Assembly: GCA_903903945.1 (NCBI GenBank)
Contig: CAIVAP010000244.1
Coordinates: forward strand, 1 to 55,259
Source of the DNA: an uncultured bacterium
GTDB taxonomy: Bacteria > Zixibacteria > MSB-5A5 > CAIYYT01
DNA length: 55,259 bases
Direction of reading: 5' to 3'
The translations under genes and the position numbers were made by a program. The notes beneath the pieces are model-generated. The model was given only the letters and a program-made list of their open reading frames with translations. It had not been told where the DNA came from and ran no database searches. Shown in pieces: positions 1 to 17,054 of the stretch; positions within the stretch are counted from its first letter, which is position 1, and every line of letters begins with the position of its first letter.

Positions 1-1
1 A

Positions 2-564
<563 letters not shown>

Positions 565-794
565 TTTAGGATCTCATGAGCCATTGCAGACTTGAAGGCG
601 TTGAGGGTGTAAAGGTGGCTTTCGTCGAAATGAGCCATCAAGTGACGTGACAACATACTCTGATATTACGCCAGACTTATTGGAACCGAAATGGATAGAG
701 GGCCTGATACGACTGAATCAAGCCCTCCCTCAACAACGAACATTGCCTTTCCCAAGTTTGATTTGAAATACAAAGGTGCTGATTTGTGTTGTAG

Positions 795-1859
795 TCAACT
801 AAGCAGTGCGCCTGCTCGGCGCTCGAGGCTTACTCGCTTGTCGGCAAATGGAATGCTTCGGGCGTATGCGGTGAGTCCCTGAGTCAGTCCCGAGCGCGTG
901 GTCACGTCTTCGCCTTCGGCAAGGCCGGTATTCCAGGCATTGGAGATTTCGATCTTGGTAAGGGGGATCTGTTTGAATGAGGTTGTGACTTCTTCAAGCG
1001 TGGCACCTATTCGATCTTCCATCGCTAGTTCTATGGCGTCTCTGATCCGAGCATCGAGATTTCGATTCTCTACGAAGCTATTCAGAACCGGAAGCGCATC
1101 GCTGTAGAATCGGGACAGTGCATGATTGCGATGGACAATTTTCAGTTCCTGCACTTCCTCTGCACCCCAAACAATGTGATTCCCGCAGACGAAATTGTAG
1201 AGGAATGTCGTCAGTCCGAACGTCGCCGATCCCGTTTCCGAATTCCACAGGAAAAATCCTTTGCCAAGACGTGCGTTTCCGACCTCCACCGGACGTTCGT
1301 CATTTACAAGAAAGACGAACATATCGCGGTCGGAGGCGTAGAGTCCGGCCGATCCCATCTTTGAATCCGGCGGATGCCAGTTGGTGTCCTTAACCGCTTC
1401 CAGAAGTTCGTAGATTACGTCGTAGTCCCAGATTCGCCCATAAGTCGGGCTAGTAAAAGCCGAGACTGCATTGCCGAAGTTGCTCTCGTCGGAATCGAAG
1501 GATTCGTTTTTCCTAACAAGCAACTTGGCCTCTCCGCCATTCTTCGCCATACCGTACTCAAGGCACTGAACAGCCATCCCAGCAGATAGTGATCTCAAGT
1601 ATCCCGCCGGTGCTTTTACCGACTGGCAGAGTTGCGAGAATGACCAATTGGTGAGCGCCGCATGCCGAATGTGTCCGTTCAGGAACATCCCGCCGCCGTG
1701 CGTTGCATGAAGTCGTAAGTCCCGCAGAGCATAGGTCTCCTCTAGTGCGTTACGCTTGCGCTTGCCGGTGAACTCGAGGATTGCATCAAGCGTTTTGAAG
1801 CGCTCGTCCGGCGGTCTCTTCACCCACTGTTTGTGGGCATCAACAAGTATCGTGGACAT
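795..1859 (-). CDS. DUF932-family protein
   Basis: Motifs YGRIWD, LYASDRDMFVFL and GFFLWNSETG...NFVCGNH resemble DUF932. ATG at 1859 has an AAAGGAG RBS. Confidence 0.75.
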   Translation of the reverse strand: MSTILVDAHKQWVKRPPDERFKTLDAILEFTGKRKRNALEETYALRDLRLHATHGGGMFLNGHIRHAALTNWSFSQLCQSVKAPAGYLRSLSAGMAVQCLEYGMAKNGGEAKLLVRKNESFDSDESNFGNAVSAFTSPTYGRIWDYDVIYELLEAVKDTNWHPPDSKMGSAGLYASDRDMFVFLVNDERPVEVGNARLGKGFFLWNSETGSATFGLTTFLYNFVCGNHIVWGAEEVQELKIVHRNHALSRFYSDALPVLNSFVENRNLDARIRDAIELAMEDRIGATLEEVTTSFKQIPLTKIEISNAWNTGLAEGEDVTTRSGLTQGLTAYARSIPFADKRVSLERRAGALLS

Positions 1860-1880
1860 GGTGTGTTTCTCCTTTCTCAA

Positions 1881-2642
1881 CTATCCACGCCATTTCTGGC
1901 AGTTTTCGAAGTACTCGCAATTCGGGCATTGCCATCCGGCATTCGGGTAGAATTGCCTCGCCTTGATTCCCTCGATTACGCGTTTGGCCAGGTGGAAGAA
2001 TCGGACTTTGTCGTTTTGATCCCGAAAGACTACAAAGCTGTGCAATTGTGGCTTCTTGGTCTTCGTGAGGATGTCCATCCGCAAGCTGGGCTCACGTTTT
2101 CGGAGCCAGCTGAAAGCATACGCGTAGGCCGTAAGCTGCAAATGCTGCGTTAGCGTAGTGAGGTCGTACACCTTGGCGGCGGTCTTCAATTCGACCACGA
2201 CGTCACCTTCTTCAAGAAGATCAAAGTAGCCATCCATCGGCAACTCAAGCCGTTCGCCGGTCTCAAGGTCAACCAGTGGTACCCGGAAAGACTGCTCGAC
2301 TGCTTTCGGAGCGCCCCCTTTGTATTCCTTGACGTAGACTGCCAGAAGCTCCTTGCCCTTGTCGATTATCGATTCAAGATCGCCACCGTTCTTGAATCGA
2401 ATTTCATCCACTGCCTGAGCATTCATGTCTGCCGCGAAGATTGCGGCAACGTCCTGCCATTCGTGAATAAAACCCTGTTGTTGTTCCTTGTGCCACCACT
2501 CGATAACGGAATGGATGGCGCTTCCTAAGGCGAGTTCTGCCGCCTTGAAGGGCCTCGGGAGTTCGTCGATATACTGATACCGGTACTTTAGCGGGCACAT
2601 CAGGTACAGGTTGATCTGTGATACCGATATGTGGTCGCGCAT
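1881..2642 (-). CDS. PD-(D/E)XK nuclease, RecB/AddB/Cas4-like, with 4-Cys Fe-S motif
   Basis: SVSQINLYLMCP, GSAIH, D...VELKT, QLTAY and C-terminal CPNCEYFENC. TAATG coupling to the upstream gene. Confidence 0.85.
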   Translation of the reverse strand: MRDHISVSQINLYLMCPLKYRYQYIDELPRPFKAAELALGSAIHSVIEWWHKEQQQGFIHEWQDVAAIFAADMNAQAVDEIRFKNGGDLESIIDKGKELLAVYVKEYKGGAPKAVEQSFRVPLVDLETGERLELPMDGYFDLLEEGDVVVELKTAAKVYDLTTLTQHLQLTAYAYAFSWLRKREPSLRMDILTKTKKPQLHSFVVFRDQNDKVRFFHLAKRVIEGIKARQFYPNAGWQCPNCEYFENCQKWRG

Positions 2643-3334
2643 TAGCTTGGCACTCCTTCCAAGCCCACATTTAGAATGTGATCAATCAGAGTACTGGCGT
2701 CCGGCTTCGAGGCATCCTTCAGAGATTCCACGCCAAATGCCCGCTTCAGGAAGTCGTGGGCATCATCGCCAGTGACTCCGCGCTCGGCAAGCAAGCGGAA
2801 AAGATAACGGCGCTGGTTTTCGGTCATGGGCTCATCCGGCGGGTCCTGACTGGCACGGTGGTTATTGCGAGTGCTCTCAGAACCGTCATTGCCGTTTCCC
2901 CCGGCTGCCGGCGCGGCTGCACCCCTCATCCCGTTTCCATGGCCATTATCCCCAACGCCATTGATGAACTCATCGGTCAGTTCTTCGAGGGCAATAACGC
3001 CGACGTTCACGGCGTCCCGCAGTGCTCTTGCTTTAGCGCGGGTAAACGCCATGCGAATGATGTGCGGAGCAATGATGGCGTTCACGTTGTTGGGGTTGGC
3101 GTCCCCACACTCGGTGAATACCCCTTTTTCTGTCACTACTCTCGCCATAGAAATCGCGGTCATTTCGTTGTCCGCGGAAGGGGCTTGCAGCAGCTTGGTT
3201 TCGATCTCTTTCAAGCCTTCCTGGTGGGCGCGATTGAGCAAGCCAGCGTACGTGACAACCTCTCTGGTTGCAATAACGCGGCCTTGGCGGTCCTTGATCT
3301 CGATGGTCGTGACCAAGTTCGACTGGGTGGTCAT
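2642..3334 (-). CDS. Putative single-strand annealing protein (Rad52/RecT-like) with low-complexity linker and small C-terminal helical domain
   Basis: ATG at 3334 with GAGGAGG RBS. GDA...IRMAFTRAKARALRDA motif. Located directly upstream of an exonuclease-like gene. Confidence 0.55.
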   Translation of the reverse strand: MTTQSNLVTTIEIKDRQGRVIATREVVTYAGLLNRAHQEGLKEIETKLLQAPSADNEMTAISMARVVTEKGVFTECGDANPNNVNAIIAPHIIRMAFTRAKARALRDAVNVGVIALEELTDEFINGVGDNGHGNGMRGAAAPAAGGNGNDGSESTRNNHRASQDPPDEPMTENQRRYLFRLLAERGVTGDDAHDFLKRAFGVESLKDASKPDASTLIDHILNVGLEGVPS

Positions 3335-3515
3335 AAGACCTCCTCTCGTTGTTTTGTGTTGGTGTCTAAATTGGAAAAGGACTGGGGTGGAAAGTGAAAC
3401 CTTCACAGACCACCTTCGAGAGGGAGCGTACAGGCCCCACAAACGCAATCAATTGCCGAATGAGGACACTTTTCCGCCCTAGATCGATGTGCCTCGCTTC
3501 CCTACGCTCAATCGT

Positions 3516-4796
3516 ATGACGAACAGAGAACTTCTCATCCTCGGCGAAACTAACTACCGAAATGACCGGAAGCGATTCGGCATCTTGAACGATGACCGCC
3601 GGCGACACATGTTTATTGTGGGGAAGACAGGGATGGGGAAATCCACACTGCTGTTAAACTGCATCGTGCAGGACATCCAGGCAGGGCGGGGGGTGGCTGT
3701 CATCGACCCCCACGGTGATCTCGTCGAGCGGGTACAGGACCATGTCCCGGCTAGACGCGTTAACGAAACGATCTACTTCAACCCAGCCGACGTGGACTAC
3801 CCGATTGCTTTCAATGTCCTCTCAAATTCCGACCCGAAGCAGCGGCATCTCGTCGCCTCGGGGGTCGTGCAAGTTTTCAAGAAGATCTGGTTTGATTCCT
3901 GGGGTCCGCGGCTGGAGTACGTGCTTCGAAACGCGATCTTGGCGCTGCTGGAAGCTCGCGGGCAGACGCTGCTAGGTATCAACCGGATGCTCGTTGATGA
4001 AGCATTTCGTCAGAGAATCATGAACGCCGTCAATGACCCGGTGCTTCGCCACTTCTGGGGCGTGGAGTTCGAGCAGTATCCGAAAGTCTTCCGTACCGAG
4101 ACGATCTCGCCGATTCTGAACAAGGTCGGCCAATTCCTCGCCAACCCGCTAATGCGGAACATTGTCGGACAGACGAAGACCAGATTCGACCTTTCGGAGG
4201 TTCTCGCTTCTGGGCAGATTCTGCTCCTGAACCTCGCGAAAGGGAAGATTGGCGAGGACAACTCCGCGCTTCTGGGGGCATTGATGGTGACACAGCTCTA
4301 CCTGGCGGCGTCGCGGCGGGCGTCAGTTCTCGAAGAGGAGAGGACTGACTTCTTCCTCTATATCGATGAAACGCACGCGTACGCGACGGAGGATTTCCCG
4401 TCAATTCTCTCAGAAGCGCGTAAGTACGGACTCGTGATAGCGGGCATGGCGAATCAATTCCTGGCGCAATTGCCGAAACAGCTTGTGTCAGCCATCCTCG
4501 GCAACGTCGGAACGCTCATCGCCTTCGCTTGCGGATCGGAGGACGCGGAGGCACTGGCACGAGAATTCTATCCGACCTTCAGGGCAGTCGATCTCAACAG
4601 TCTTCCGCAGTACAACGCGTACCTTCGACTATCCATCGACGGGAAAACGTCGGAGCCGTTCAGTGCGGAGACGTTGCCGCCGCCTGTTAGCCTCAAACAG
4701 TCGAGTCGAGGGAAGATCATCAAGCAGTCGCGGCAGCGCTTCTGCCGGAGTCTCCAGAGCGTGAATGAACGGATCGAACGATGGATGCACAATTAG
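3516..4796 (+). CDS. VirD4/TraD/HerA-like P-loop ATPase (T4SS DNA-binding/coupling-protein domain), no N-terminal TM anchor
   Basis: RRRHMFIVGKTGMGKS (Walker A), VIDPHGDL, FLYIDETH (Walker B), SEARKYG, ANQ. Start is 3516 or 3489. Confidence 0.85.
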   Translation: MTNRELLILGETNYRNDRKRFGILNDDRRRHMFIVGKTGMGKSTLLLNCIVQDIQAGRGVAVIDPHGDLVERVQDHVPARRVNETIYFNPADVDYPIAFNVLSNSDPKQRHLVASGVVQVFKKIWFDSWGPRLEYVLRNAILALLEARGQTLLGINRMLVDEAFRQRIMNAVNDPVLRHFWGVEFEQYPKVFRTETISPILNKVGQFLANPLMRNIVGQTKTRFDLSEVLASGQILLLNLAKGKIGEDNSALLGALMVTQLYLAASRRASVLEEERTDFFLYIDETHAYATEDFPSILSEARKYGLVIAGMANQFLAQLPKQLVSAILGNVGTLIAFACGSEDAEALAREFYPTFRAVDLNSLPQYNAYLRLSIDGKTSEPFSAETLPPPVSLKQSSRGKIIKQSRQRFCRSLQSVNERIERWMHN

Positions 4797-4999
4797 CATT
4801 TAGCCGCCCTGCTGCTCGCTATTTCCGGGGTGGGAAGAAGAAAAGCAACGAAGTTAACTTTGCCGAGACTAGAATCGCTCGGCGGTCCTTTGACGATAGG
4901 CAACCCACGATAGGGTCTCCGGAGCTGCAAGTACACCTTCTGGAAGCCAAAGCATTTGCGATTCGCAGTAAACACGCTATATTGTCTAATAGACACAGG

Positions 5000-5188
5000 A
5001 TGAAGTCCAAGATGAAACTCACTGCCGCTGCACTCAAGAAAGTTGGTGTAACCCTGACCGATCCTGACAGAATTATCCTTCACTGCGATCAATGCGATAA
5101 GGGATGGCAACCACAAATACAACCAGGTGGCAAGCTCCGTCGTCTCTACTTGGTCTGTCCGAACCGCTGCAACGAGCCGAGGCGTTAA
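5000..5188 (+). CDS. Small putative Zn-binding protein (~60 aa)
   Basis: CDQC...CPNRC motif. Candidate promoter TTGCGA-N16-TATATT at 4956-4983. Start is 5000 or 5012. Confidence 0.5.
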   Translation: MKSKMKLTAAALKKVGVTLTDPDRIILHCDQCDKGWQPQIQPGGKLRRLYLVCPNRCNEPRR

Positions 5189-5484
5189 AGTAACTGACTT
5201 CGGCGACACTTGAGCATCGTGACAGGATGGAGAGCGCGACAAGTTGCGCCGTCGTGGTTTAGGCCGTGACAGCGCCTAACTCTCCTTGATTCGTTGCTCG
5301 AAGTAGTTGAGTTCCACTTCGGCTAAACCAGATATTTCCGCGGCCATTCAGCCGGGTTCTTCAAAGCAACTTGATTCACGTCGAGCGTGAACGTTGGCAC
5401 TCGAAAGCTAATCTTTTTCGATAGTGCGGGCAGAATCAGACGGCTATTTCTCCGGAATGACCCTATCCACAAAGTTTGTCTGAC

Positions 5485-8400
5485 TCATCGAAGGGTCTGT
5501 CGTTCCTCCACAAGTGAATATATGTACGCTGTTAACGGCAACGCTCCAGCTACTCGAGGCAAATAGTTATGCGCCTCCGCAATGTGCTTCAGCCATCCCG
5601 GAACCGGCTCTGCATCCGCAGATTCACTTGAGAGCCTTGCTTTGTCTGAGAGTACGGCAAACGCAGAGTCGGGCGCGAGAATCTGTTGTGGCTGACCGTC
5701 GGATCCTACGTACTCAAGCTTTGCTCCCTGAGATTCCGCCTCCTTGTAGAAATCTCTAAGTCTGGCGGCAAGTTGATACGGCTTACCCCCAAAGTGCCCC
5801 GAACGCGAATTGCGCCAAAGCTTTTCGCCAGTCATCGTAGTTTCAATACCAGCTCTGATTAGGTATCCGTGGTCATAAAATTTTTCAGCAATCGCCTTAA
5901 ATATCCGTATGGCACTCGATACGTTGTCGCAGATCATGCCATTTCCGTCATCCTGATCCGGCTCGAATCCCATTGCCTTCTCACGTGTCGCAATGATTTC
6001 AAGGTCTCGGTTGATTTGGTGAATTATTTCCTGCAGCGGTCGGACTTCGCGCGTTCCGGAAGAACCCTTGATGTCCCACAAGAGTACCGCTTTGTCGACC
6101 TCAAAATAGCGGATTACAATTTCACTAACCGGGTAATGCCACGAAGACCAGACTTCAAGCACAGTCGTGCGTGTTCTCTCGAATAGCAATGAGACATTCT
6201 CCAGGCGACTTTCTATGCTCCCACTGTCCAGTTGCGCAGGTTCGACCTCGGGTGGCAACTGACAGGAGAGGCCACGTCTAAAAGCACCCCGTATGTACTC
6301 GTTGTACAGCGCAAGATGGTCCTTCAACTGTGTTCGCAACTCCGGCTTTCTTCGGTCATTGACGAGATCGTTTTCTGTCAGAACCGTTCTCGCGATTGAC
6401 ACAGCCTTGCCTGCCAACGCGGCTGCAAAGCGCAAGTAGCTCTCCCGAACTGTATGTTCACCCGGAGACAAATCAATTCTTGGTCGGATTGTATTTTGCC
6501 AATACGGCATACAGTGACCATAGCGTCCCATTTCAGATAATAATTCATCGACTTGCCGGATAACCTCAAAGCGCCTATCATACGAACCTTTCTTGATTTC
6601 CGTTTCACCGAGAAGATGAGCCGATTCGGCAAATTTCGCATCCAACCGTCCTGCGCTCACCCTGAGGTGTTGAGTGCCCGCTGTCGCGGCCAATTCGGCG
6701 AGAGACATAGCCAAATGGGAGGCGTTCATTAGAGGGTGGAACAGCCAGAGTTCAATCTCTTTGCTAATCGCGCACAGGTAGCTTGATTCATCATGACAGG
6801 TCGTCAGCGCGTGGAGTGCCTCGACACGCTCTGGTCCCTTGAGGTGGGATTCGAGGACCATGAACGTATCAACAAGGGACGCCGTCCTGTCTAACAGCCC
6901 GCGATCGATAGGATTCCGAGTCGGGTCGAACAGCTTCGACAGTGCCTTATTCCTGTATAGCATTCGGCCAGTACTGACTGCTCCAGATTGCCGCCGAATG
7001 CCACGTTTCTCATCCGATTGGAACAGATCAGTTTCCAGAGCCCAGTCAATTACAAACGGTTGCCGCGGATACTCCGGCAGCGTCGTCCGTGCCCCAAACT
7101 CGTCGAATCCGAGTGCGATCTCTACACTCAGGGCATTGTCAAGTTCCGCACTGAGGCCAACTTGCAAAGTGGCCAAAAGTTTCTCGCATACGAACCACGG
7201 GATTCCGTCAACTGCAGTATCACGATGTTCTCGTTTGAAGCACATGATCGCCTGAGCGAGAACATAGTCAAGCCAGTACTTGATCTTATGGTCGTGTGAG
7301 AGGTTTTCACCGAAGCGTATGCCACGAACCCATCTGTTTTCGTCATTTGTGGTGCGAACATAACGTGGAACAATTAGCCCCGAGTCAATGGAGGAATTAC
7401 AGCAATCGTGGAAGAGCGCGTCCGTGAGACGGACCCCGGACAGTTCAAGGAGTTGCTTCATTGCTGGGTAGGAAAGCGCAATGTCGAGACGTGACGAATC
7501 CAATCTACCGCTAGATCGGGTTGATTCATCCCAGACGAGCCGCTGCGCTTCCAGTACAGCAGCTAATGATTCGCGCGCGTGAGCGCCAGTGGTGTGAGCG
7601 AGGTACCGGTTTACCGTTGATAAGAACTTAGAGCCACTGCTCGTCCTGGCAAGTGTAAGCAACTCGCTCTCAATTTCAACTCGGTGCGTATCCCTCCACT
7701 CGGGCGTCGGCAGACCCGGTTCAGGCATTTCGCCCGCCAGAGCGGACCGAAGTTCCCTTTGCCATCCTGTGCACATGTCCAATCCGAAAATTAACCTAAG
7801 ATCACGTTCGGCGACTGACGGAGTATCAATCTCAATGCCCTTCAGGACTTCCGTAATCCAGCGCCAACCAAATTCAAAACTTCCCAAATAGTGTGCAGCG
7901 TTCATCAGTGCCTGATACCGTCTGGTCCGGTGAAGTGGGGAGTTTGCCGTAGCTTGAAGGGCGCTCCGCCAGAGAACGCCTAGTGGTCGTGGGCTGTGGT
8001 CGAATAGTGTGGTGTCAAGCATCTCGCTTTCAGTCAATGAAAGGCAGTATATGGGCACGACATTGAGATGTCGTTGTTTCCCATCGATGAATATCCGAAT
8101 CTGACATGGCCCTCGCTGGTAGGATGACAGCGAATGCACTTTCGCTTCCGACATAGCATCGTCATTAAAGACCGTTACGCCGCTGGCCGCATGCCAGCGC
8201 CGTGTATTGTCGTGCATCGAATCCCTGCGTGATTTCAAGTCCGCTAACATTGGCTCAAATGGCGTCGGAGAAGTGATGCCGATAATGGGATGGTCGACAT
8301 CGTAGGGGGTGCCGAGTGAACCGAATGATTGCACTTCGCTATCAATAAATTCCGCGATTTCGTCTTCGCGCACCTTCATCGACGCCTCTACTTTGCGCGC

Positions 8401-8760
8401 CAGTTCACTGTGTGCACCCCGCGAGATCGTGAGAACACAGCTGTGGACATCTGCATTGAAAAGAGAGAGTTCATCCATGACTCCTGCAAGCGTGGAGCCG
8501 AAGATCAAAGTGTCGTCGACCACAACTATCCGTCGGCCAGATAAAGTGGTCGCGTTGATGAAAGGCAGTGCCTTCTCAGTTACGCACTTCTCCCAAGGGA
8601 CAATTGGTGTGTTTGAAAACTGATCTACGAGCATCAGCAGTCGAGGTGCTTTGCGCGAGATTGCGACAATCAAGTCGTAGCGACTTTGGACAATACCACT
8701 GACGAACTTGGTAATGGGCTTCTGGTAGCGACTAAGAAAATGTCTCTCGTGAGCATCCAT
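5485..8760 (-). CDS. Large protein: N-terminal phosphoribosyltransferase domain plus C-terminal class III adenylate/guanylate cyclase-like domain
   Basis: PRPP-binding loop RIVVVDDTLIFGST. Cyclase motifs AVLLWDIKGSS, QDDG, IRAGI and GKPYQLAARL. Confidence 0.75.
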   Translation of the reverse strand: MDAHERHFLSRYQKPITKFVSGIVQSRYDLIVAISRKAPRLLMLVDQFSNTPIVPWEKCVTEKALPFINATTLSGRRIVVVDDTLIFGSTLAGVMDELSLFNADVHSCVLTISRGAHSELARKVEASMKVREDEIAEFIDSEVQSFGSLGTPYDVDHPIIGITSPTPFEPMLADLKSRRDSMHDNTRRWHAASGVTVFNDDAMSEAKVHSLSSYQRGPCQIRIFIDGKQRHLNVVPIYCLSLTESEMLDTTLFDHSPRPLGVLWRSALQATANSPLHRTRRYQALMNAAHYLGSFEFGWRWITEVLKGIEIDTPSVAERDLRLIFGLDMCTGWQRELRSALAGEMPEPGLPTPEWRDTHRVEIESELLTLARTSSGSKFLSTVNRYLAHTTGAHARESLAAVLEAQRLVWDESTRSSGRLDSSRLDIALSYPAMKQLLELSGVRLTDALFHDCCNSSIDSGLIVPRYVRTTNDENRWVRGIRFGENLSHDHKIKYWLDYVLAQAIMCFKREHRDTAVDGIPWFVCEKLLATLQVGLSAELDNALSVEIALGFDEFGARTTLPEYPRQPFVIDWALETDLFQSDEKRGIRRQSGAVSTGRMLYRNKALSKLFDPTRNPIDRGLLDRTASLVDTFMVLESHLKGPERVEALHALTTCHDESSYLCAISKEIELWLFHPLMNASHLAMSLAELAATAGTQHLRVSAGRLDAKFAESAHLLGETEIKKGSYDRRFEVIRQVDELLSEMGRYGHCMPYWQNTIRPRIDLSPGEHTVRESYLRFAAALAGKAVSIARTVLTENDLVNDRRKPELRTQLKDHLALYNEYIRGAFRRGLSCQLPPEVEPAQLDSGSIESRLENVSLLFERTRTTVLEVWSSWHYPVSEIVIRYFEVDKAVLLWDIKGSSGTREVRPLQEIIHQINRDLEIIATREKAMGFEPDQDDGNGMICDNVSSAIRIFKAIAEKFYDHGYLIRAGIETTMTGEKLWRNSRSGHFGGKPYQLAARLRDFYKEAESQGAKLEYVGSDGQPQQILAPDSAFAVLSDKARLSSESADAEPVPGWLKHIAEAHNYLPRVAGALPLTAYIYSLVEERQTLR

Positions 8761-9107
8761 GATGTTTCCCCAGTGTTTATCGACCCAAATTGATTGACCG
8801 CATTATTTTATGTATCATGATAATAGCCGGGTTGAATAGCCGACTCAATCCACTAGGAATTGTTCCTTGGCCTCAGGCACCGCCGCTCACACTGCCAGCA
8901 TGCGCCTTGTGAGCGGCTATTGAATTTACGAAACTGTGCCAGGAAGTCAAGTCTCCCGGAAGGCTGCTTGTGACCAATTTGTGACTATAATCAGTCCCGA
9001 ACCGTCAAAATTGATCCAAAGTAGTACTTCAATGGATCGCTGCTATCCTGCCGTAGTCCAACGCAATGCGTTGATGCTCATTCGTTTGTGTTTTCGTCGG
9101 GATCGCT

Positions 9108-9146
9108 TTTCAAGTCCCTTGCGTCTACCAATTACGCCACTCCGGC
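9108..9146 (-). pseudogene. tRNA-Leu 5' half (through the anticodon loop; loop reads CTTGAAA)
   Basis: GCCGGAGTGGCGTAATTGGTAGACGCAAGGGACTTGAAA on the minus strand; no 3' half follows. Confidence 0.85.
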
Positions 9147-9165
9147 AATTGGTAAGGTGTTCAGC

Positions 9166-9194
9166 AATTTAGGCTTAACTTCGAAAGGACGCAA
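9166..9194 (-). promoter_or_regulatory. Sigma70-type promoter for the cassette-borne tRNA 5' half
   Basis: TTGCGT-N17-TAAATT, about 20 nt upstream of the tRNA start; same geometry as at 14296-14324. Confidence 0.6.
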
Positions 9195-9696
9195 GGGACT
9201 TTTGTCCCGGTGCGCGCTTGATTGTACTTGATTGATAGATTGTCACTTGAGCTGAGATTGGCTAGGTGTTGTGACCAATTTGTGACTGCCGAGAGTTTGA
9301 TGACAGGGTCAGTCTGAGAAAAAAACGCTTCGTTTAATCAATCTGAACAAGTTGTATGCGATAAGAGAGCCAGCCTTCTCGGGGCTCAGTCTTCTTGAAT
9401 CGGTCGAGGTCGATTGTCGACTAGATTGGCCCCTCGGGACAGTATTTGCCCACTCCCGTGACAGCTTTTTTCAGGAAAGAACTTCTCAGCAACAAGGTTG
9501 AATACCGCAACCGCATCTTGCCTCAAGCCCCCTACGTGTTTAGACTTAGCTGACGGCAAACAGTCACGGTGAGCGGCGTCATGTCAAACTCGAAAAAGTG
9601 CTTTTCACAGCTTGACCGCGCAGCTGAGATTTCTCAACGATCAGCTTGGACCTAGGTCGCCCTTCCCAACCTCACACAGTGGATGGTTGTGTCACT

Positions 9697-9777
9697 TTAT
9701 GTGAGCTTGGTCAAGATGCAGAGCACGGCCAATACGACTATTCCAGCTATCATAGGGATTATCGTGACCTTCTTCAT
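9697..9777 (-). CDS. 26-aa single-TM peptide MKKVTIIPMIAGIVVLAVLCILTKLT (type I toxin-like)
   Basis: Translated by hand (below the ORF track cutoff). Strong RBS AAGGAAGGAAGG; basic N-terminus and hydrophobic core. Confidence 0.55.
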   Translation of the reverse strand: MKKVTIIPMIAGIVVLAVLCILTKLT

Positions 9778-10420
9778 GCGGCCTTCCTTCCTTATTCGAG
9801 GATGTTTATCCTCCCGTCCATATGTTCGGCGGATATGAAGGAAATGTTTAGTCGGTTTGGAAGGGAACTCCTATCGGTGACTGACAGACCCCCGAGGTGG
9901 CATGTGTGCTAGTAACGCCTGTGACGTCACGTCGGTGACCTGGATCTACCAAAGCGATTGGCTAAGAGGACGCTTCTTGCTCTCCCGCAACGACTGTGAC
10001 GAGGTACGTGATTCGTGCACAGGTAACCTATTAGTACGCAAGCCATTAGGCGTCTAACGAAATGGGGTGCTGTCAAAGTTAGAGAACCAAGCAACCAGGG
10101 TCGCGACGACGCTACCTGTCCATCAGTACGATGAAGTTGGCTCAATCGTGAAGTTGGCACCAGACGCAGTTCTCCTTTCAAAAGCTGTTCTTCCACGGCC
10201 AATCGCACGAATTCGCGGCTGCAACGACATGTCTTGACCCTTGATGCTGCACCGGACGGATCCAGGACTTTGGATCACTGAGAGTACTCGTGTTTCTGGC
10301 ACTGAACGCGTTGACACGACACAGCAAAAAACATCATATTGCCAATCACAAAGGCCTTTTCTAACTGAACAGAATTTTCTATTTTGTCTATCACTTGAAA
10401 AAAGAAGGAGCGAGACTTCA

Positions 10421-13400
10421 ATGAAAGAGATTCAGATTCTGCATTGCTCTGATATTCACTGCGGGGCGAACTTCATCCTCTCCCCAAAAGAGGTAGCAAA
10501 TTACTCCAGGTTGTCGCCAGAGTGCTATCTTGCCGAAAAGGTCGCCAAAGATGTTGCAGCGAACTTCCCGAAGCGTCTTGATCTAGTGGTTGTCAGCGGA
10601 GATGTCAGCGAGAGCGGTGTGAAAGTGGAGTTTGAGATGGCTTGGCGGTTTTTGGAACACTTGATCAACTGCCTTCGAGATTCGAAGAAACAGCAGTTAT
10701 CCATGGATCAACTCATCGTTGTTCCAGGCAATCATGATATCAACTTCGACGATAACAAGACTGCTTACAAAGCCGCCAAGGGCAGGAAACCCGCCTACCA
10801 GTTCACGGAGAGACTCGACAGATTTGGTGAATTCTACAAGCGGATATATGCGAGGACATCGCACGCACGCACATATAATAAAGAGCAAGGGATTCACATT
10901 TTCAGATATCCGGACTTGGGGATGGCTGTATTTGGCTTCAACTCGTGCGGCAAGATCGGCCACACTACGCCATCGGCACCGGGTCATCTTCTCCCCGAAG
11001 ACATACTTTCGGCATTCGATCAACTCAAAGATGTCGAAAAGTATCCTGCGCGCATTGGCATCTTCCACCATAACGCGGTGGAAGTGCCAGTATTTGGAGA
11101 GTTTGACCAGCGTGACTGCTTGTCGTCAGCTGCGGTCGATCATTCGGCTTTTGTAAGGAGCGGCATATCCGCACTTCTTTATGGGCACAGGCACAGAGCG
11201 ATCACCGATACGTTGCTTCCATCAGGCGCGAAGAAGTCTGAAGCTATTGCATGTGTCGGCGCGAACTCACTCGGATGTGCGAGCGATTTGCGGCCCGGCA
11301 GTCATAACGGATATCAAATGATCACGATCCAAATCGAGGATGATAGTTGGGACATTAGCGTCGTTAGTAGAGTCCTCGATCTGACTACCCCGGCTACAGG
11401 TAGTGATTCCACTCCTGGGGTGTTTTCGAATGAATATCCAAAACCCTCAAGAGTTCGACTGTCACTTCGCAGTGTACGCCGCGAAAAGCAGGAAGTGTCG
11501 GCGCTACGAAACGAGAGCGGACGGGTCAAGAAGGAACCGGCACAGAGGCAGCGTCGTGGCTCCTTATCAGTCGAAACATTGCCGAAGAGCAAGAGACTTG
11601 GAACAGCCAGAATAGACATCAGTACAAAACTAGAAAGCCTGGGCGTGTTCAAAGGTTTGGGAATGATGAAGGAAGCGCAAAAGACGCTCAACGAGTTGAA
11701 GAAGTACGCCCGTGCAGATGTCGACAGGGCGCTGATCAGGTGTCTGAACAGCGAACTCGAAATCAGAAGTCTCCTCGATGAGGAGAAAATGAACCATGCG
11801 GCTCTGAGGGAAAAGTTCCAATTGATCTACAACATTCTGAGTGCTCCTGAGATAAAGGACTCATTTTCCTCGAGCGTCTTTCCAAGAGCAGCCTTTGATA
11901 CCGAGTTAGCTCGCAGCGAATACTGGAGTACACACTTCGCAACCGGGTTTTCTCAAGTCACACGTCCCGACACATACAAGTACATTAGAGAGGCAAGAGA
12001 GGCATTCGAAAAGTCGAAAAGAACTGACCACGAGATCAACAGGCACCTCATACTAATGCTGTTGAATCAAAATGAGTTTGCGCATGCCCGGCAGGCACTA
12101 CTGGAGGCAATTTCCTTAAGTCCCCAATATGCACCCTACTACGTCTTGAAAGCAGAGCTGGCTGAAAGGGAGATGCGCTACCAAGACGCTCTTGAATGCC
12201 TGCGCGAAGCTAAGTCCATCATGGATGGCAGGCCATGCCAAATGGTCGACTTCATGATAATGTATTGCCACTACTTTCTGGGTAACTATGAAGAAGCCGC
12301 AAATCTTATGAAAAAGGGAATTAGATCTTGGCCGAATAACAAAGGAATGGCGAACAACTATGCGTTCCTCAAGACAAGAGAGGCCAGACGGGAATTCGGA
12401 GACAGACTTTGGACAGAACAGCCCAAGAAGGCAATCGACTTGCTTCAGAGGTTCCTGAAAGCTATTGACAAGATAGGAACGCATGACACAGCCCATTTCA
12501 ACTACGCCTTGTTGGTATACTGGGCGTCACTGGAAGGAAAACAAGAAATTGCGATCAGGATATTGGGTGACAACGATAGGAAGAACTTGGAGCGGGTCGA
12601 TGACATCATCGAGTATCTCTTCAGAAAAGCAAGAGAGTTGTATCTCGAGAATCACGATTATATACATGGCTTCGTCGCGTCGTATTTCGCAGAGAAGGCC
12701 AAAGCGGGCAAGGCAAGCAGTATAAGGGATCTGCTCCTTGACGAATTCGCTTGGGACAATGACAATTTCTATACGTTCGGACACACCCTACGAAATCGAA
12801 AGCGTGCGCTTCTCGCAAAAGACAGAGCGATCAAGAACTTGTTTGGGTTTGGGCACATCGCGACTCTCAGAAGATGGAAGCGGGAATCATCGTCTTTTGC
12901 CGATACGGGTGCGCTGGCAGGCGGGGGCTACTATTTCAAGTGGCAAGACAAGGGACTAGTCGTCAATCCCGGGGCAGGTTTTCTAGCAAACTTCCAGCGC
13001 CGGGGCTATTCCATAAACGAGATTGATGCCATAATCGTGACATCCTCACACTATTCTGCTTACGAGGAATTTACTGACCTGTTGGAACAGGTGAAACAGG
13101 CCCACCGTTATAGGCCGAAGGAAGAGCGAGTTGCCGTCTACTTGGAGGGTTCCGTGCTCCAGAGGTTCCCTGATCTGGCTATTCGCAAAGTGCTCAGCAT
13201 TCAAAATCCACAAGTACTACCCGATAGGGAGACTTTCCTGTTTGGCGGAGAGCTCGTGCTTGAGTCGGCAATTCCTTGTGACAACGCTGGCCATATGACC
13301 GAGAGCACGAACGAGAGCTCTCTCTACAATCCGCCCGTTCTGACCAGACTGAAATTGATGGAGAATGGAACAGCTGTATCTTCCATATGCATAGTCAACA

Positions 13401-14002
13401 GTTTCTGTCCTTCGGACTCTGCACTCTCCTTCTTGAAAACCTGTGACTACTTGCTCGTCAGCATTGGCGCTTTCACTCCTTATGACCTCTTCAAGGCGTC
13501 CATGAATGAACAAATGAAGGCAGATTTGAGACAGCTCAGCTGTTACGACTCTCTTTACATAGAGAGTTTCGGTCTTAATTCCATAGCTGAGCTTCCTGAG
13601 GAATATGTCGAGACAACGAATGATAGAGTGTGCGGACTGAGTGATCAACACAATGTCAGTCTTGATCAGTTGATTCGTCTGGCTGATAGTATTCGCGATA
13701 TGAAAGGAAAAGTGGTAGTACTCGGCAATCTACCCCCGGAACTTGGAGACAAGAGACATGGTCTCGCCAAAGTACTAAACAAGTACTATCCTGATGGACC
13801 ATCGTATCTCACTGAGGACCTTGGATTGGTAATCGGACTACGAAAGAAGGAAGTACTATGCGAATGCTGCCACTCATGGGTGACGTTGTCCAACCTGAGA
13901 GAGGAGTGTATCGAAGGGAGGCTTACTGGTCTCATCAAGCACTTCTGTGAGAAGCACAGGCATGAAAAAGGATTTTCGGGTTTTCTGAGGAGAGAAGAGT
14001 GA
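10421..14002 (+). CDS. Calcineurin-like metallophosphoesterase + TPR + degenerate MBL-fold domain protein (putative defence/conflict protein)
   Basis: ATG at 10421 with GAAGGAG RBS. SDIH, SGD, PGNHD, FHH and YGHRH motifs. TPR-like helices in the middle. GGGYYFKW..GLVVNPG...IDAIIVTSSHYSAY is MBL-like but lacks HxHxDH. Confidence 0.8.
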   Translation: MKEIQILHCSDIHCGANFILSPKEVANYSRLSPECYLAEKVAKDVAANFPKRLDLVVVSGDVSESGVKVEFEMAWRFLEHLINCLRDSKKQQLSMDQLIVVPGNHDINFDDNKTAYKAAKGRKPAYQFTERLDRFGEFYKRIYARTSHARTYNKEQGIHIFRYPDLGMAVFGFNSCGKIGHTTPSAPGHLLPEDILSAFDQLKDVEKYPARIGIFHHNAVEVPVFGEFDQRDCLSSAAVDHSAFVRSGISALLYGHRHRAITDTLLPSGAKKSEAIACVGANSLGCASDLRPGSHNGYQMITIQIEDDSWDISVVSRVLDLTTPATGSDSTPGVFSNEYPKPSRVRLSLRSVRREKQEVSALRNESGRVKKEPAQRQRRGSLSVETLPKSKRLGTARIDISTKLESLGVFKGLGMMKEAQKTLNELKKYARADVDRALIRCLNSELEIRSLLDEEKMNHAALREKFQLIYNILSAPEIKDSFSSSVFPRAAFDTELARSEYWSTHFATGFSQVTRPDTYKYIREAREAFEKSKRTDHEINRHLILMLLNQNEFAHARQALLEAISLSPQYAPYYVLKAELAEREMRYQDALECLREAKSIMDGRPCQMVDFMIMYCHYFLGNYEEAANLMKKGIRSWPNNKGMANNYAFLKTREARREFGDRLWTEQPKKAIDLLQRFLKAIDKIGTHDTAHFNYALLVYWASLEGKQEIAIRILGDNDRKNLERVDDIIEYLFRKARELYLENHDYIHGFVASYFAEKAKAGKASSIRDLLLDEFAWDNDNFYTFGHTLRNRKRALLAKDRAIKNLFGFGHIATLRRWKRESSSFADTGALAGGGYYFKWQDKGLVVNPGAGFLANFQRRGYSINEIDAIIVTSSHYSAYEEFTDLLEQVKQAHRYRPKEERVAVYLEGSVLQRFPDLAIRKVLSIQNPQVLPDRETFLFGGELVLESAIPCDNAGHMTESTNESSLYNPPVLTRLKLMENGTAVSSICIVNSFCPSDSALSFLKTCDYLLVSIGAFTPYDLFKASMNEQMKADLRQLSCYDSLYIESFGLNSIAELPEEYVETTNDRVCGLSDQHNVSLDQLIRLADSIRDMKGKVVVLGNLPPELGDKRHGLAKVLNKYYPDGPSYLTEDLGLVIGLRKKEVLCECCHSWVTLSNLREECIEGRLTGLIKHFCEKHRHEKGFSGFLRREE

Positions 14003-14098
14003 AAATCTACCTTCCCTGAGTTGTTCCTACGTCAGCAATAGCTGGACATGTAGGGGCTCTTGAAGTAAGATGCTGGTACGGTGACCGACACATCCACG

Positions 14099-14277
14099 TT
14101 GTGACCGATTTGTGGCTACGAACTGTCCAAGTCAATCAAAACTGATACAAAGTAATACTTGAGATTTTTCCCGGCATCCACTTACCGCACAATATAATAC
14201 GTTGATAGTCAATCACTTGCATCTTCGTCTGGTTCGCTTTTTAAGTCCCTTGCGTCTACCAATTTCGCCACTCCGGC
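14099..14277. mobile_element. Outer att site (island/host junction)
   Basis: Arm TTGTGACCGATTTGTGGCT (14099-14117), conserved block TCAAAACTGATACAAAGTAATACTT, and perfect IHF consensus TATCAACGTATTA (minus, 14195-14207). Colinear with 8968-9146. Confidence 0.8.
14239..14277 (-). pseudogene. tRNA-Leu(UAA) 5' half, displaced by integration at the anticodon loop
   Basis: GCCGGAGTGGCGAAATTGGTAGACGCAAGGGACTTAAAA, followed by non-tRNA sequence. Confidence 0.88.
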
Positions 14278-14295
14278 AATTGGTGAAACGTCAGG

Positions 14296-14324
14296 AAGTT
14301 ACATAAATTCAAGGTGGAAGGCAA
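14296..14324 (-). promoter_or_regulatory. Probable native tRNA-Leu sigma70 promoter
   Basis: TTGCCT-N17-TAACTT, about 19 nt upstream of the tRNA start. Confidence 0.6.
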
Positions 14325-14391
14325 GCGGGGATGCGTAAGTGGCAGGGTGGCCTGGACGTTCGCCCGGGTTTCAGACGCGGACTCGCTTAAT

Positions 14392-14418
14392 GTCAGGAGC
14401 GCAGGGCTCCTGACCTAC
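14392..14418 (-). repeat. GTAG-type REP hairpin
   Basis: GTCAGGAGC-gcagg-GCTCCTGAC followed by CTAC. Confidence 0.55.
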
Positions 14419-14497
14419 AAGACTCACGAGATCAATCGCTGTGTGTACGACAAAATGCCACCCTTGCGATTGGGCACCCGACTTTGGCTGAGACGGA

Positions 14498-14911
14498 TCA
14501 GAAACTCGAATAGGCTCCTGACATGCGACGCTGCTGCGCCTCGTACTCCAAGCACGGGCGAAGCGCTGCGAACGATCTACTATTGTTGCCCCATACGTCA
14601 ATGACGAAGGATGACCGAATGACAATTCGTGAACAAGTGCCATTCTTCTTAAATCCTACAAATGCGAGATTTGGCGTCATTGCAAACTGAAGACGTGCCA
14701 ACCCCAGCATCTCCAGCGCTCTGCGGCCGTCTTCCTCAGTTCCCCCGACAGCACTGTGGAGATAGAGCAACTCCTCGCTCCTCGCCCGAGCAAAGGCTGC
14801 GACTGATTCACCAGTTGCTTCCCCCGGAACTATTAGCATCACGAAATCGGGAAGCTGACTCTGTTCGTGTTTGGGGGGGTCATTTTGTTTGCGCTTTGAG
14901 AACCATCCCAT
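14498..14911 (-). CDS. Hypothetical protein
   Basis: 137-aa ORF with GGAGG RBS; no recognised motif. Confidence 0.5.
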   Translation of the reverse strand: MGWFSKRKQNDPPKHEQSQLPDFVMLIVPGEATGESVAAFARARSEELLYLHSAVGGTEEDGRRALEMLGLARLQFAMTPNLAFVGFKKNGTCSRIVIRSSFVIDVWGNNSRSFAALRPCLEYEAQQRRMSGAYSSF

Positions 14912-15049
14912 TGTAGTGTCCTCCTTACCTATCGACTAAAGTGAAGACGGTTTCGTCTATCCGATCTTCTGACAAATTCCCGTACGTCGCATATTCTCTA
15001 TCGGGCATAAGGTGTCCAACCCCAAGGTTGGGTGCGTTATGACCTGTCC

Positions 15050-15574
15050 CTACTCTTCAATCGTCACCTGACACGCCTTGAACGTCGGTGGATTGGCCAC
15101 AAGATTCAGCTGGAGGTCGTAGAAACTAAGTGGCAGTCGCGGATAATCGAATGTATTCAGCAGAAAAGTCGTGTCGGGTGCGCTCGTGCGAACCATAAAA
15201 TAGATCGTGGCGAGCAGGCCGCGACCGGTCGCAACTGCGGCAGAATCGTCAACAACGCCAATCGAGATCGTGTCAGTTTTGGCAAGAACATTTTTGAACA
15301 TAAATTGATCGGCGCGGCTGTTCTTGAACGAGACCGAATCGAGATGCAGGAGAGAGGAGGGGAATAATATAGGCACGTTGATTGCGGACAGAGAGACCTC
15401 GTTGTCGAAGTTGACCGGCACGGTAAAAACCTCTCCGGGCGCAGCCTGAATCTTCTCGGGTAAGTAGACCCGATTCGCAATCTTTTCCGGCTCGTCGCTG
15501 CTATCGCCGCACCCTACGATTCCGGCGCCTATTAGAAAGAACAGTGTGGCGAAAACGCGGCCAAATCGAAACAT
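15050..15574 (-). CDS. Cohesin-like domain lipoprotein
   Basis: Signal peptide with lipobox IVGC. PGEVFTVPV...GLLATIYF beta-sandwich pattern. Confidence 0.7.
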   Translation of the reverse strand: MFRFGRVFATLFFLIGAGIVGCGDSSDEPEKIANRVYLPEKIQAAPGEVFTVPVNFDNEVSLSAINVPILFPSSLLHLDSVSFKNSRADQFMFKNVLAKTDTISIGVVDDSAAVATGRGLLATIYFMVRTSAPDTTFLLNTFDYPRLPLSFYDLQLNLVANPPTFKACQVTIEE

Positions 15575-15759
15575 CTCAACTCCATTCCAGCATGTCTATC
15601 AGTTAGATAACGCGCCACGGTACAATTTGTCCAATGCTTTTTTTGGCTACCGCGGTGATTGTTCAGCAGGAATCGGTGTTTTAGTGCAACTAAGCACTAC
15701 AAAATCAGTTGCCAATCGTATCATAGTTTGTATTATACCGCGAGTTGAGTGGAGGATAT

Positions 15760-16956
15760 ATGAATTCTGTTGAATTGGCCAGGAAAGTTTTCTGGGTGGG
15801 GGCGGCAGACCCTGATTTGCGGGTATTCGATATCGTCGTTAAGACGGATTACGGAACAACCTACAATTCCTATCTACTCGTGGGGGAAAAGGTAGCTCTG
15901 ATCGATGCGGTCAAAGAGGGGTTCGAGAATGTTCTCTTCGCCCGTATTGAGGAACACGTACCGTTAGAGCGGATCGACTATCTGATCGTCAATCACACCG
16001 AACCCGACCACTCCGGCGCCATCAAGCTACTTCTGGCGCGCAATCCCAAGATCAAGCTCGTATGCTCCAAACCGGCGGTGCCGTTTTTGAAGAATATCGT
16101 CAACGACGAATCAGTCGCGATCGATGGCGTCAAAGGTGGCGACCGTCTCGATCTGGGAGGGCTGACGCTCGAATTTATCTCGGCTCCATTTATGCACTGG
16201 CCGGATACTATGTTTACCTATTGTCCCGAGGAGAAGATTCTTTTCCCGTGCGACGGGTATGCGGCGCATTTTGCCCCTTACGAATCAATCTTCTTCAAAC
16301 CGGGGGACAAGGTGCATGAGAAGGAGGCATGGCACTACTATGACGCGATCATGCGTCCGTACGCGTCCTTTTGTCGGAAAGCATCGCAGGCCGTGATTGG
16401 CATGGATATCAAAATCGTAGCACCATCACATGGGCCAATCAACCGCGACGAGCCGAAGCGTTTTATCGAAAAGTATCTGGAATGGACAGCGCCGAAGAAC
16501 GTTGGCGACAAGAAGCGCGTCCTAATAGCTTTTGCCAGTTCTTATGGAAATACCAGAATGATGGCGCAGGAGATCGACCAGACGCTCCAGCAGGCCGGTT
16601 TGTCAACCACAATGGTGGACCTGGCTCATATCCCCGCGAAGGAGTTACGTGATCATTATGAAGCGGCTGACGCGATTCTTTTTGGTACGCCGACTTTCGT
16701 CGGCGATGTGGTCAAGCCGGTGTGGGACGCTGCCCAGCTATTGATGACGGTTTCGAGCGTCGGCAAAAAGGCCGCCGTGTTTGGCTCCTATGGCTGGGGA
16801 GGGCAGGCGGTGGACATATTGGAATCATACCTTGAAGGCCTCAAGCTCAAAGTGCACAAGCCCGGCGTTAAGGCAAGACTGGTTCCTTCGCAGACGGAAT
16901 TGGAGGAATGCAGACGTTTTGCTGAGGCGTTTAGTGGATTCGTGCGGCAGGGATAG
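15760..16956 (+). CDS. fprA: Flavodiiron protein (FprA/A-type flavoprotein)
   Basis: GTTYNSYL, NHTEPDHSG, HWPD and PSHG motifs plus a flavodoxin domain (SSYGNT, FGSYGWGG). GGAGG RBS. Confidence 0.93.
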   Translation: MNSVELARKVFWVGAADPDLRVFDIVVKTDYGTTYNSYLLVGEKVALIDAVKEGFENVLFARIEEHVPLERIDYLIVNHTEPDHSGAIKLLLARNPKIKLVCSKPAVPFLKNIVNDESVAIDGVKGGDRLDLGGLTLEFISAPFMHWPDTMFTYCPEEKILFPCDGYAAHFAPYESIFFKPGDKVHEKEAWHYYDAIMRPYASFCRKASQAVIGMDIKIVAPSHGPINRDEPKRFIEKYLEWTAPKNVGDKKRVLIAFASSYGNTRMMAQEIDQTLQQAGLSTTMVDLAHIPAKELRDHYEAADAILFGTPTFVGDVVKPVWDAAQLLMTVSSVGKKAAVFGSYGWGGQAVDILESYLEGLKLKVHKPGVKARLVPSQTELEECRRFAEAFSGFVRQG

Positions 16957-17054
16957 GCGATGCTTTCCGCTAAAGCGTAAACAAGAATGAACCGATACTC
17001 TATCATGTATGTTCGCTGGCGCCCATATTGAAAGTTTTGAGAATGTAAAAGCGC

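Follow-up and report, generated by a model that had tools for sequence, protein, structure and literature searches.

Why would one bacterial protein carry a phosphoribosyltransferase (PRTase) domain at one end and a class III nucleotidyl cyclase domain at the other? The question is raised by a gene at positions 5485-8760 (minus strand) of contig CAIVAP010000244.1, assembly GCA_903903945.1, from an uncultured bacterium of the Zixibacteria. The window analyzed was the whole stretch of 55,259 nucleotides. An earlier note on this DNA had proposed that the gene was a single-gene nucleotide-signaling defense system. The answer favored here, held tentatively, is that the product is complete in a single polypeptide and belongs to a modular family, so far undescribed, of conflict proteins centered on nucleotides. 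Its action is most likely directed at phages and resembles abortive infection. A role in defense is likely but unproven. Both kinds of enzyme have recently become established themes in bacterial immunity, PRTases as effectors (retron type III, ShosT) and class III cyclases in Pycsar and its relatives, and they are found here in one polypeptide.

The open reading frame (ORF) is stop-free up to its stop codon at 5485-5487 and is the only long frame at that position. It encodes a protein of 1091 amino acids (aa), P0001, which is cytosolic and showed no hydrophobic segment in a Kyte-Doolittle scan. Homologues align from about residue 6 to about residue 1083. All strings quoted in the earlier note were located in the frame, and their key residues are invariant or almost so in the family. 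These are VVVDDTLIFGST at residues 79-90, WDIKGSS with D896, QDDG with D937 and D938, and GGKPYQLAARL with R1000. An AlphaFold2 model of P0001 was built on an alignment of 48 homologues (A1), with a mean predicted local distance difference test score (pLDDT) of 92.1 and a predicted template modeling score (pTM) of 0.83. Domains were parsed using VIA-align (VIA) by comparison to 48,161 representative chains, the 50 best matches being considered. The motifs are not chance occurrences: this confident model shows both a class III cyclase fold and a type I PRTase fold.

Little of the protein was recognized by sequence libraries. The sole Pfam listing was Pribosyltran (PF00156) at residues 69-132 with an E value of 0.001, scoring 18.8 bits compared to a cut-off of 26.3 bits. 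The gathering score of this family is passed by some relatives (29.4 bits in P0092, 32.5 in P0084 and 35.4 in P0135). NCBIfam gave weak APRT/HPRT-type matches near the loop that binds phosphoribosyl pyrophosphate (PRPP), including an APRT-like match at 3.2e-5. The middle stretch of about 750 aa was covered by no Pfam, PADLOC or NCBIfam family, in keeping with its earlier description as unassigned. No PADLOC family matched P0001 at E ≤ 1 or any of five cyclase-bearing relatives at E ≤ 0.01, and no PRTase-cyclase fusion was described in the literature covered, which excluded most subscription journals and all supplementary files. The architecture thus corresponds to no named system, as had been suspected.

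The N-terminal domain (residues 1-150; positions 8311-8760, minus strand) has a type I PRTase fold. Using VIA, 4z1o_A superposed on it with a Z score of 11.9 and 2.8 Å root-mean-square deviation (rmsd) over 124 residues, and 1vdm_A with a Z score of 11.2. PRTases accounted for 16 of the 50 best matches to P0001. The PRPP-binding loop lies at positions 8491-8526 (minus strand; residues 79-90). Taken from residue 78 to residue 90, as IVVVDDTLIFGST, it consists of a hydrophobic run, two acidic residues and G-x-T, and it aligns with the loops of APRT, PurF and HGPRT. Conservation across the family is high: R36 and G88 are each present in 135 of 135 sequences, D82 and T90 in 134 of 135, and position 83 is D in 128 and E in 7. 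The core fold and the PRPP loop of a type I PRTase are both present in P0001 and the PF00156 gathering score is missed. The aligned range ended between residues 459 and 622 in nine of the 16 listed PRTase matches. As only the two end residues of each range are given, this is no more than a hint that an element of the center packs onto the PRTase core.

The C-terminal domain (residues 880-1086; positions 5503-6123, minus strand) was assigned a class III nucleotidyl cyclase fold based on a combination of Foldseek, VIA, alignment to Rv1900c and conservation. The C-terminus adopts the cyclase fold and carries both metal aspartates, as the earlier note had proposed. Foldseek gave 56 matches in the PDB at E ≤ 1e-3 and all among the matches listed were class III adenylyl or guanylyl cyclases, with target-normalized TM scores of 0.74-0.76 for Ma1120 and 0.77 for Rv1900c. 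The VIA matches included 3et6_B (Z 17.1, rmsd 2.8 Å over 166 residues) along with 1ybt_A (Z 16.9, rmsd 2.6 Å over 162 residues). Three Pycsar enzymes were also matched, 8jsz_B (Z 13.4), 7r65_A (Z 12.7) and 8jsf_B (Z 12.0). Further matches were the Cmr2 palm domain (Z 12.0), the cyclase-like ATP-binding protein 6yii_A (Z 10.9) and a GGDEF domain (Z 9.7). A profile of 16 C-terminal domains (A3) was searched against PDB sequences, and the sole match with a cyclase-type alignment was Rv1900c (E 0.015).

When P0001 was aligned to Rv1900c, D896 (codon 6073-6075) corresponded to the Asp of 'FTDIVGST', D938 (5947-5949) to the Asp of 'GD', R969 to 'RIGIH' and R1000 (5761-5763) to 'GAR', all codons being on the minus strand. 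Among 82 cyclase-bearing sequences, D896 and D938 are Asp in all 82. R1000 is Arg in 79 with three gaps, and R969 is Arg in 74 and Lys in eight. Metal Asp residues in 82 of 82 and Arg in 79 of 82 are hard to explain without metal-dependent chemistry. Judged from these conservation patterns, the PRTase and cyclase domains both look constrained for ligand and metal binding.

The center of the protein divides into three parts, followed by a helical bundle. The first part (residues 151-389; positions 7594-8310, minus strand) was delimited by conservation and the AlphaFold2 models. It comprises a helical region and a small subdomain rich in beta strands, and it has a conserved PYDxDHP motif. P152 is present in 126 of 135 sequences and R222 in 132 of 134. 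No fold match was found by VIA for this part, which the tool barely tested. The second part (residues 390-486; 7303-7593, minus strand) is a winged helix, with VIA Z scores of 6-7.6 to many winged-helix domains. Its wing bears the near-invariant residues D459, P465, R479, G484 and E485, with E485 in 127 of 127 sequences and P465 in 129 of 130. The third part (residues 490-660; 6781-7293, minus strand) is an alpha/beta domain whose structure resembles the DarG fragment of the Mycobacterium tuberculosis DarT-DarG complex. Chain 7yk3_D superposed on it with a VIA Z score of 9.1 (rmsd 3.8 Å, 148 of 187 residues) and a Foldseek E value of 9.4e-3, and was the sole VIA match to the central region at Z ≥ 8 among the matches listed. 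The helical bundle before the cyclase (residues 661-879, starting at about 655; 6124-6780, minus strand) was defined by the AlphaFold2 model and VIA. It gave solely non-specific VIA matches (Z about 11), and K723 within it is present in 94 of 95 sequences. Residues 150-660 were also refolded alone using 27 sequences (A4), with a pLDDT of 86.6 and a pTM of 0.86. This stretch had no usable match in the ESM Atlas, and searching PDB sequences with a profile of the central region yielded nothing at E ≤ 10.

The identity of the 7yk3 chains was established using a DarT ORF of another genome (L079), which matches chain A (242 aa, two chains); chains B and D are therefore the DarG fragment. According to the accessible part of PMC13621843, this fragment is the C-terminal domain of DarG, by which DarT is bound and inhibited, and it has a relationship to the DUF4065/SocA_Panacea antitoxin domains. 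A reading of residues 490-660 as a DarT-like ADP-ribosyltransferase was dropped, as DarT is chain A and the match is to chain D. The Thermus DarT in the PDB was not among the 50 best VIA matches for the central region. Homology to SocA_Panacea (PF13274) was not supported by sequence: alignment of A4, and of its C-terminal columns, to 14 Panacea ORFs of the phylum using hhalign gave probabilities of 0.1-0.3%. P0001 resembles the toxin-binding domain of DarG (7yk3 chains B and D) in the superposition of residues 490-660 and differs in having no DarT, no macrodomain and no sequence-profile likeness to SocA_Panacea.

A single homologue, P0002 (32% identity), was recovered using a word-indexed search. 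When phmmer was run exhaustively on 1.84 billion representatives, 296 proteins matched at E ≤ 1e-3, of which 101 were at E ≤ 1e-10 and 35 at E ≤ 1e-30. The better matches were mostly 1050-1150 aa in length and aligned end to end. Invariant in the 48 full-length members of A1 were R36, D82, D83, G88, T90, R222, D459, G461, P465, G484, E485, K527, G556, K723, D896, D938 and R1000. Pfam found nothing beyond weak Pribosyltran in 45 relatives, and this in two of them. Three cyclase-bearing members are named 'hypothetical protein' at source, and no informative family name was found. The nine clusters looked up were all single-member. In a census of the phylum (E ≤ 1e-10) the family was present in two of 285 genomes, in none of three genomes of the same genus and in none of 20 genomes of the same family; the query genome is 84% complete. 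The gene is rare, patchy and strain-specific. Among viral contigs there were 23 pattern matches and no relatives, which has no bearing on defense either way.

The relatives differ most at the C-terminus. Profiles of the center and of the cyclase were run on 151 proteins, comprising the 150 best of the 296 phmmer matches and P0002. The center profile matched 144 and the cyclase profile 81, of which three belonged to the source alignment of that profile. Both matched 76 proteins, the cyclase profile alone matched five short ones, and neither matched two. Other enzymes were found in the place of the cyclase. The C-terminus is a dCMP/RibD-like deaminase in P0092 and P0143, where it occurs with an EAD7 domain, and in P0133, which has no EAD7 match. 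In P0098 it is PurN, at 165 bits compared to the 150-bit NCBIfam equivalog cut-off. A protein of 1348 aa (L006:9731-13777) has a PNP_UDP_1 nucleoside phosphorylase on the same N-terminal module, and it also matches the PADLOC models PDC-M60C (5.9e-22) and 'PN-superfamily Effector' (1.3e-12). The accessible text of Kaur et al. (2020, PMC7159879) presents EAD7 as a domain that mainly brings in other effectors. The PRTase-plus-center module is constant and the C-terminus is swapped among nucleotide-acting enzymes.

A shorter form of the protein, 826-880 aa where inspected and spanning profile positions 1-632 only, was found in some 40 loci, many being of gut metagenomic origin. In 39 loci it is followed by an ABC/SMC-like ATPase of about 620 aa, with PADLOC P-loop matches of the LmuB/PtuA/AbiLi type at about 1e-8. 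A third gene (134-370 aa) is present in 26 loci, and all six products scanned (265-370 aa) were coiled-coil proteins with two transmembrane segments. The three-gene operon is apparently undescribed and is present in many metagenome contigs (L016, L023, L026-L028 and L034-L072, e.g., L045:9896-15067); its first and third genes are without a PADLOC model.

The gene lies at the left end of a strain-specific segment. Positions 4550-14238, which hold the gene and the next one, were unmatched in all three same-genus genomes save for a repeat element of about 100 nucleotides (nt). The flanks match these genomes, 697-4549 at 77% identity to one of them and 15050 onwards at 89-90%. This agrees with the earlier placement of the gene at an island end. 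By BLASTP, the 14 other ORFs of the first 17 kb had no matches in any related locus, and no neighbor clusters were common to the non-duplicate loci of the full-length form. As no conserved neighbor was found, the cyclase-bearing form is a single-gene unit, and that part of the earlier proposal held. A neighboring 1253-aa gene was considered as a conserved partner because locus L019 has a divergent gene of 1257 aa; it was rejected as BLASTP showed no similarity.

The neighbors of family members within five genes were analyzed in 15 non-redundant related loci. Pfam was run on 86 proteins, and PADLOC on 75 of these (11 with clear housekeeping Pfam domains being left out) and seven window ORFs. 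Known defense genes were present in four of the 15 loci. L021 contains BrxL and PglZ (BREX) and TmtA, and in L024 a prokaryotic Argonaute (pAgo) adjoins the family member. L013 contains a methylase and a restriction-like gene forming a restriction-modification pair, and L014 an integrase and an E1-E2-like protein. Housekeeping-type neighbors were found in four others, discussed below, and the remaining loci contained hypothetical genes. The genomic context for defense is suggestive, not decisive.

P0001 was compared to the known systems that it most resembles. It has the fold of class III cyclases such as M. tuberculosis Rv1900c (1ybt/1ybu) and Mycobacterium avium Ma1120 (4wp9), with two metal Asp and two Arg aligned to those of Rv1900c. 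It differs in having no Guanylate_cyc match and no conserved Asn, no conserved base-specifying Lys was seen, and within the literature covered no other cyclase has such partner domains at its N-terminus. The likeness to Pycsar (PycC 7r65, 8jsz and 8jsf; Z 12.0-13.4) lies in the class III-type cyclase and the likely defense setting. In contrast to Pycsar there is no separate cyclic-nucleotide-binding effector and no PADLOC match, and about 880 residues of other domains precede the cyclase in the same chain. In the retron type III-A effectors (Retron-Eco11; PRTase-CE, PF24390), too, a winged helix comes after a PRTase-like domain. According to the accessible part of PMC12746101, the Retron-Eco11 effector consists of a PRTase and a winged helix and lowers PRPP on activation. 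P0001 differs in having no nearby reverse transcriptase or noncoding RNA, in being three times longer and in having a cyclase. PRTase-CE matches were found in two of 42 distant relatives and were weak (3.6e-5 and 2.5e-4), both being under the cut-off. The Gx14PNNxP motif, retron-specific according to the same part of PMC12746101, was present in none of 152 family proteins. ShosTA, comprising the PRTase toxin ShosT and the DprA-like antitoxin ShosA, resembles P0001 in the use of a PRTase as toxic effector. The accessible part of PMC11961720 describes ShosT as coupling PRTase and pyrophosphatase activities against purine metabolism in phage defense. P0001 has no DprA-like neighbor, and its possible inhibitory domain, suggested by the likeness to DarG, would be fused in cis. 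P0001 is neither Pycsar, nor a retron effector, nor ShosTA.

In the favored reading the center, with its winged helix and DarG-C-terminal-like domain, would keep both enzymes off until a trigger is bound. The trigger could be a nucleic acid, sensed via the winged helix. Once activated, the PRTase would consume PRPP or otherwise disturb nucleotide synthesis, as with the PRTases of retron-Eco11 and ShosT. The cyclase would turn nucleoside triphosphate (NTP) into cyclic nucleoside monophosphate and pyrophosphate, mainly as a second nucleotide-consuming warhead, in parallel to the domains that relatives have in its place (deaminase, phosphorylase and PurN). Starvation of phage replication would follow. 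What is proposed is nucleotide-centered defense in which familiar enzyme folds are combined in an architecture that is new and unannotated. The nucleotide-signaling defense of the earlier note is borne out in part: the context is accessory and defense-like, and the signal synthesis is favored neither by a receptor domain nor by a conserved neighbor.

A number of observations weigh against the favored reading. The transition-state Asn-Arg pair is canonical for class III cyclases, and position 996, that of the canonical Asn, is Gln in P0001 and variable in the family (Glu in 37 sequences, Gln in 11, Ala and Val in eight each, Ile in six). Class III cyclases specify the base with Lys/Asp (adenine) or Glu/Cys (guanine), and no conserved or canonical base-specifying Lys was seen upstream of D938, where residues 934-940 read PDQDDGN. 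Pfam Guanylate_cyc matched neither P0001 (E ≤ 1) nor any of 45 relatives (E ≤ 0.01). Of the features of a class III cyclase, the fold and the two metal Asp are present in P0001, whose Asn-Arg pair has the Arg but not the Asn, and the Guanylate_cyc match is absent. The hhalign result gave no support to the DarG likeness of residues 490-660, which is thus a structural lead only. Neither P0001 nor the five cyclase-bearing relatives matched a PADLOC model. The bona fide PurN domain of P0098 would also fit a metabolic enzyme. As for neighborhoods, which the earlier note had put forward as a check, known defense genes were present in four of 15 loci and housekeeping-type neighbors in four (L005, L009, L011 and L012), and the defense rate exceeds only modestly the one that an accessory gene of any kind might have. 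Orotidine monophosphate (OMP) decarboxylase adjoins the family member in L005 (13286-14128) and L012 (1591-2265). These two members are 33% (L005) and 22% (L012) identical to the query, and in L012 a PRTase gene follows. The adjacency may be a coincidence or a link to pyrimidine synthesis.

Two alternatives survive best, and both appear unlikely. The first is that of a Pycsar-like signal synthase, in which infection would lead to a cyclic mononucleotide that, acting on the same protein either in cis or in trans, activates the PRTase effector, so that sensor, signal and effector are in one chain. The class III fold with conserved metal and Arg residues fits this, as do the Pycsar cyclases among the structural matches; PRTases are proven defense effectors and the gene stands alone. 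However, no cyclic-nucleotide-binding domain was found in P0001 by Pfam or structure comparison, by which parts of the center were barely tested. No receptor gene was found nearby: Pfam matched no cyclic-nucleotide-binding domain in the 13 window neighbors scanned or in the 86 neighbors in the 15 loci. The scan of the window neighbors likewise gave no retron reverse transcriptase and no DprA-type protein. P0001 also lacks a match in PADLOC, whose models include cyclic-nucleotide signaling systems. A signal kept within one polypeptide offers no obvious amplification. The replacements in relatives (deaminase, phosphorylase and PurN) are not signal synthases. With these enzymes in the cyclase position and no receptor, an NTP-consuming warhead was ranked above a signal synthase, and a swappable nucleotide-consuming warhead fits the relatives at least as well.

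The second, an equally doubtful extension of the warhead idea, is a new single-chain class of immune protein resembling a fused toxin-antitoxin. The DarG-C-terminal/Panacea-like domain, as an inhibitor, and the winged helix would gate in cis the PRTase, as constant warhead, and an exchangeable second warhead (the cyclase in P0001; deaminase, nucleoside phosphorylase or PurN in relatives), with the cyclase an NTP-destroying weapon and not a signaling enzyme. Pyrophosphate from the cyclase may then feed PRTase-driven pyrophosphorolysis of nucleotides.

A regulatory or metabolic enzyme with no part in defense is distinctly unlikely. Here the PRTase-like domain would sense PRPP or a nucleotide and control the cyclase, with a second-messenger output, or the other nucleotide enzymes, and so tune nucleotide metabolism. 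PRTase-fold regulators do exist, and one of them, PyrR (1w30_A, Z 9.7), was among the VIA matches, as was the ppGpp-bound 5vog_A (Z 10.9). The PurN fusion above the equivalog cut-off, the OMP decarboxylase adjacent in two of 15 loci, with the PRTase gene in L012, and the four loci with housekeeping-type neighbors also point this way. Against it stand the extreme patchiness of the family (two of 285 genomes, none of 20 in the same family and singletons in all nine clusters) and the strain-specific segment. The relatives tagged with EAD7 or matching PADLOC effector models, the operon of the short form with its ATPase and two-transmembrane protein, and the CRISPR, pAgo and BREX contexts likewise count against it.

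A non-catalytic, cyclase-like NTP-binding sensor with the PRTase as sole effector is very improbable: the match to the ATP-binding 6yii_A, the unconserved Asn, the apparent lack of a conserved Lys and the unmatched Guanylate_cyc model would suit it, but the metal Asp and Arg residues are kept in 82 and 79 of 82 sequences, respectively, and in Rv1900c, which matched best by sequence (E 0.015), the Asn is likewise missing, with His at the position aligned with 996.

The family is unrecognized by domain or defense databases and has a design of a constant module with a swappable nucleotide enzyme. If the protein does act in defense, a single-gene system would be added to those known, and it could show a cyclase used for nucleotide depletion, not signaling. 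Even with a role outside defense, the protein would present a regulatory architecture not seen before in a cyclase.

Other features of the window lie close to the gene. The 1253-aa neighbor is a metallophosphoesterase with tetratricopeptide repeats (TPR) at 10241-14002 (plus strand), divergent from the gene and 1.5 kb upstream of it. It has domain-level likeness to the NCBIfam 'anti-phage phosphoesterase' DS9_1 (E 1.7e-25, 89.8 bits compared to a 420-bit cut-off) and matches PADLOC PDC-S60 at 2.7e-5. It is absent from the three same-genus genomes and is a candidate for a second defense gene of the same island. The metallophosphoesterase gene is bracketed by a direct repeat of about 190 nt at 8968-9155 and 14099-14285 (plus strand), the copies being 75-85% identical. 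The repeat holds the 19-mer TTGTGACCAATTTGTGACT, also found at 9269, and a hairpin-forming core of about 40 nt. The 19-mer is also on contig C147 of the same genome, and the core is on C147, C251 and C209. The core region, whole or in part, is at the syntenic spot in the three same-genus genomes. The repeat could be an element like a repetitive extragenic palindrome, an operator or a cassette boundary. No Rfam family was found in positions 1-17000 of the window.

A CRISPR array is present at 2-497 (plus strand), 5 kb from the gene. Its eight repeats are 32 nt long, end in ATTGAAAC and recur about every 66 nt, and the array is cut by the contig start. The repeats degenerate rightwards, so the right side is the trailer end. 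The repeat was found nowhere else in the assembly and in none of the three same-genus genomes. The listed ORF at 1-564 (minus strand) overlaps the array and is probably spurious. Between the array and the gene, at 795-4796, is a four-gene module encoding a DUF932 protein, a Cas4-like PD-(D/E)XK nuclease, a 268-aa protein and a TraD/HerA/mad8-like ATPase. The module is conserved, with 77% nucleotide identity, in one same-genus genome (G002, contig C235), where different genes follow it. It may be part of a mobile element or form the flank of a hotspot.

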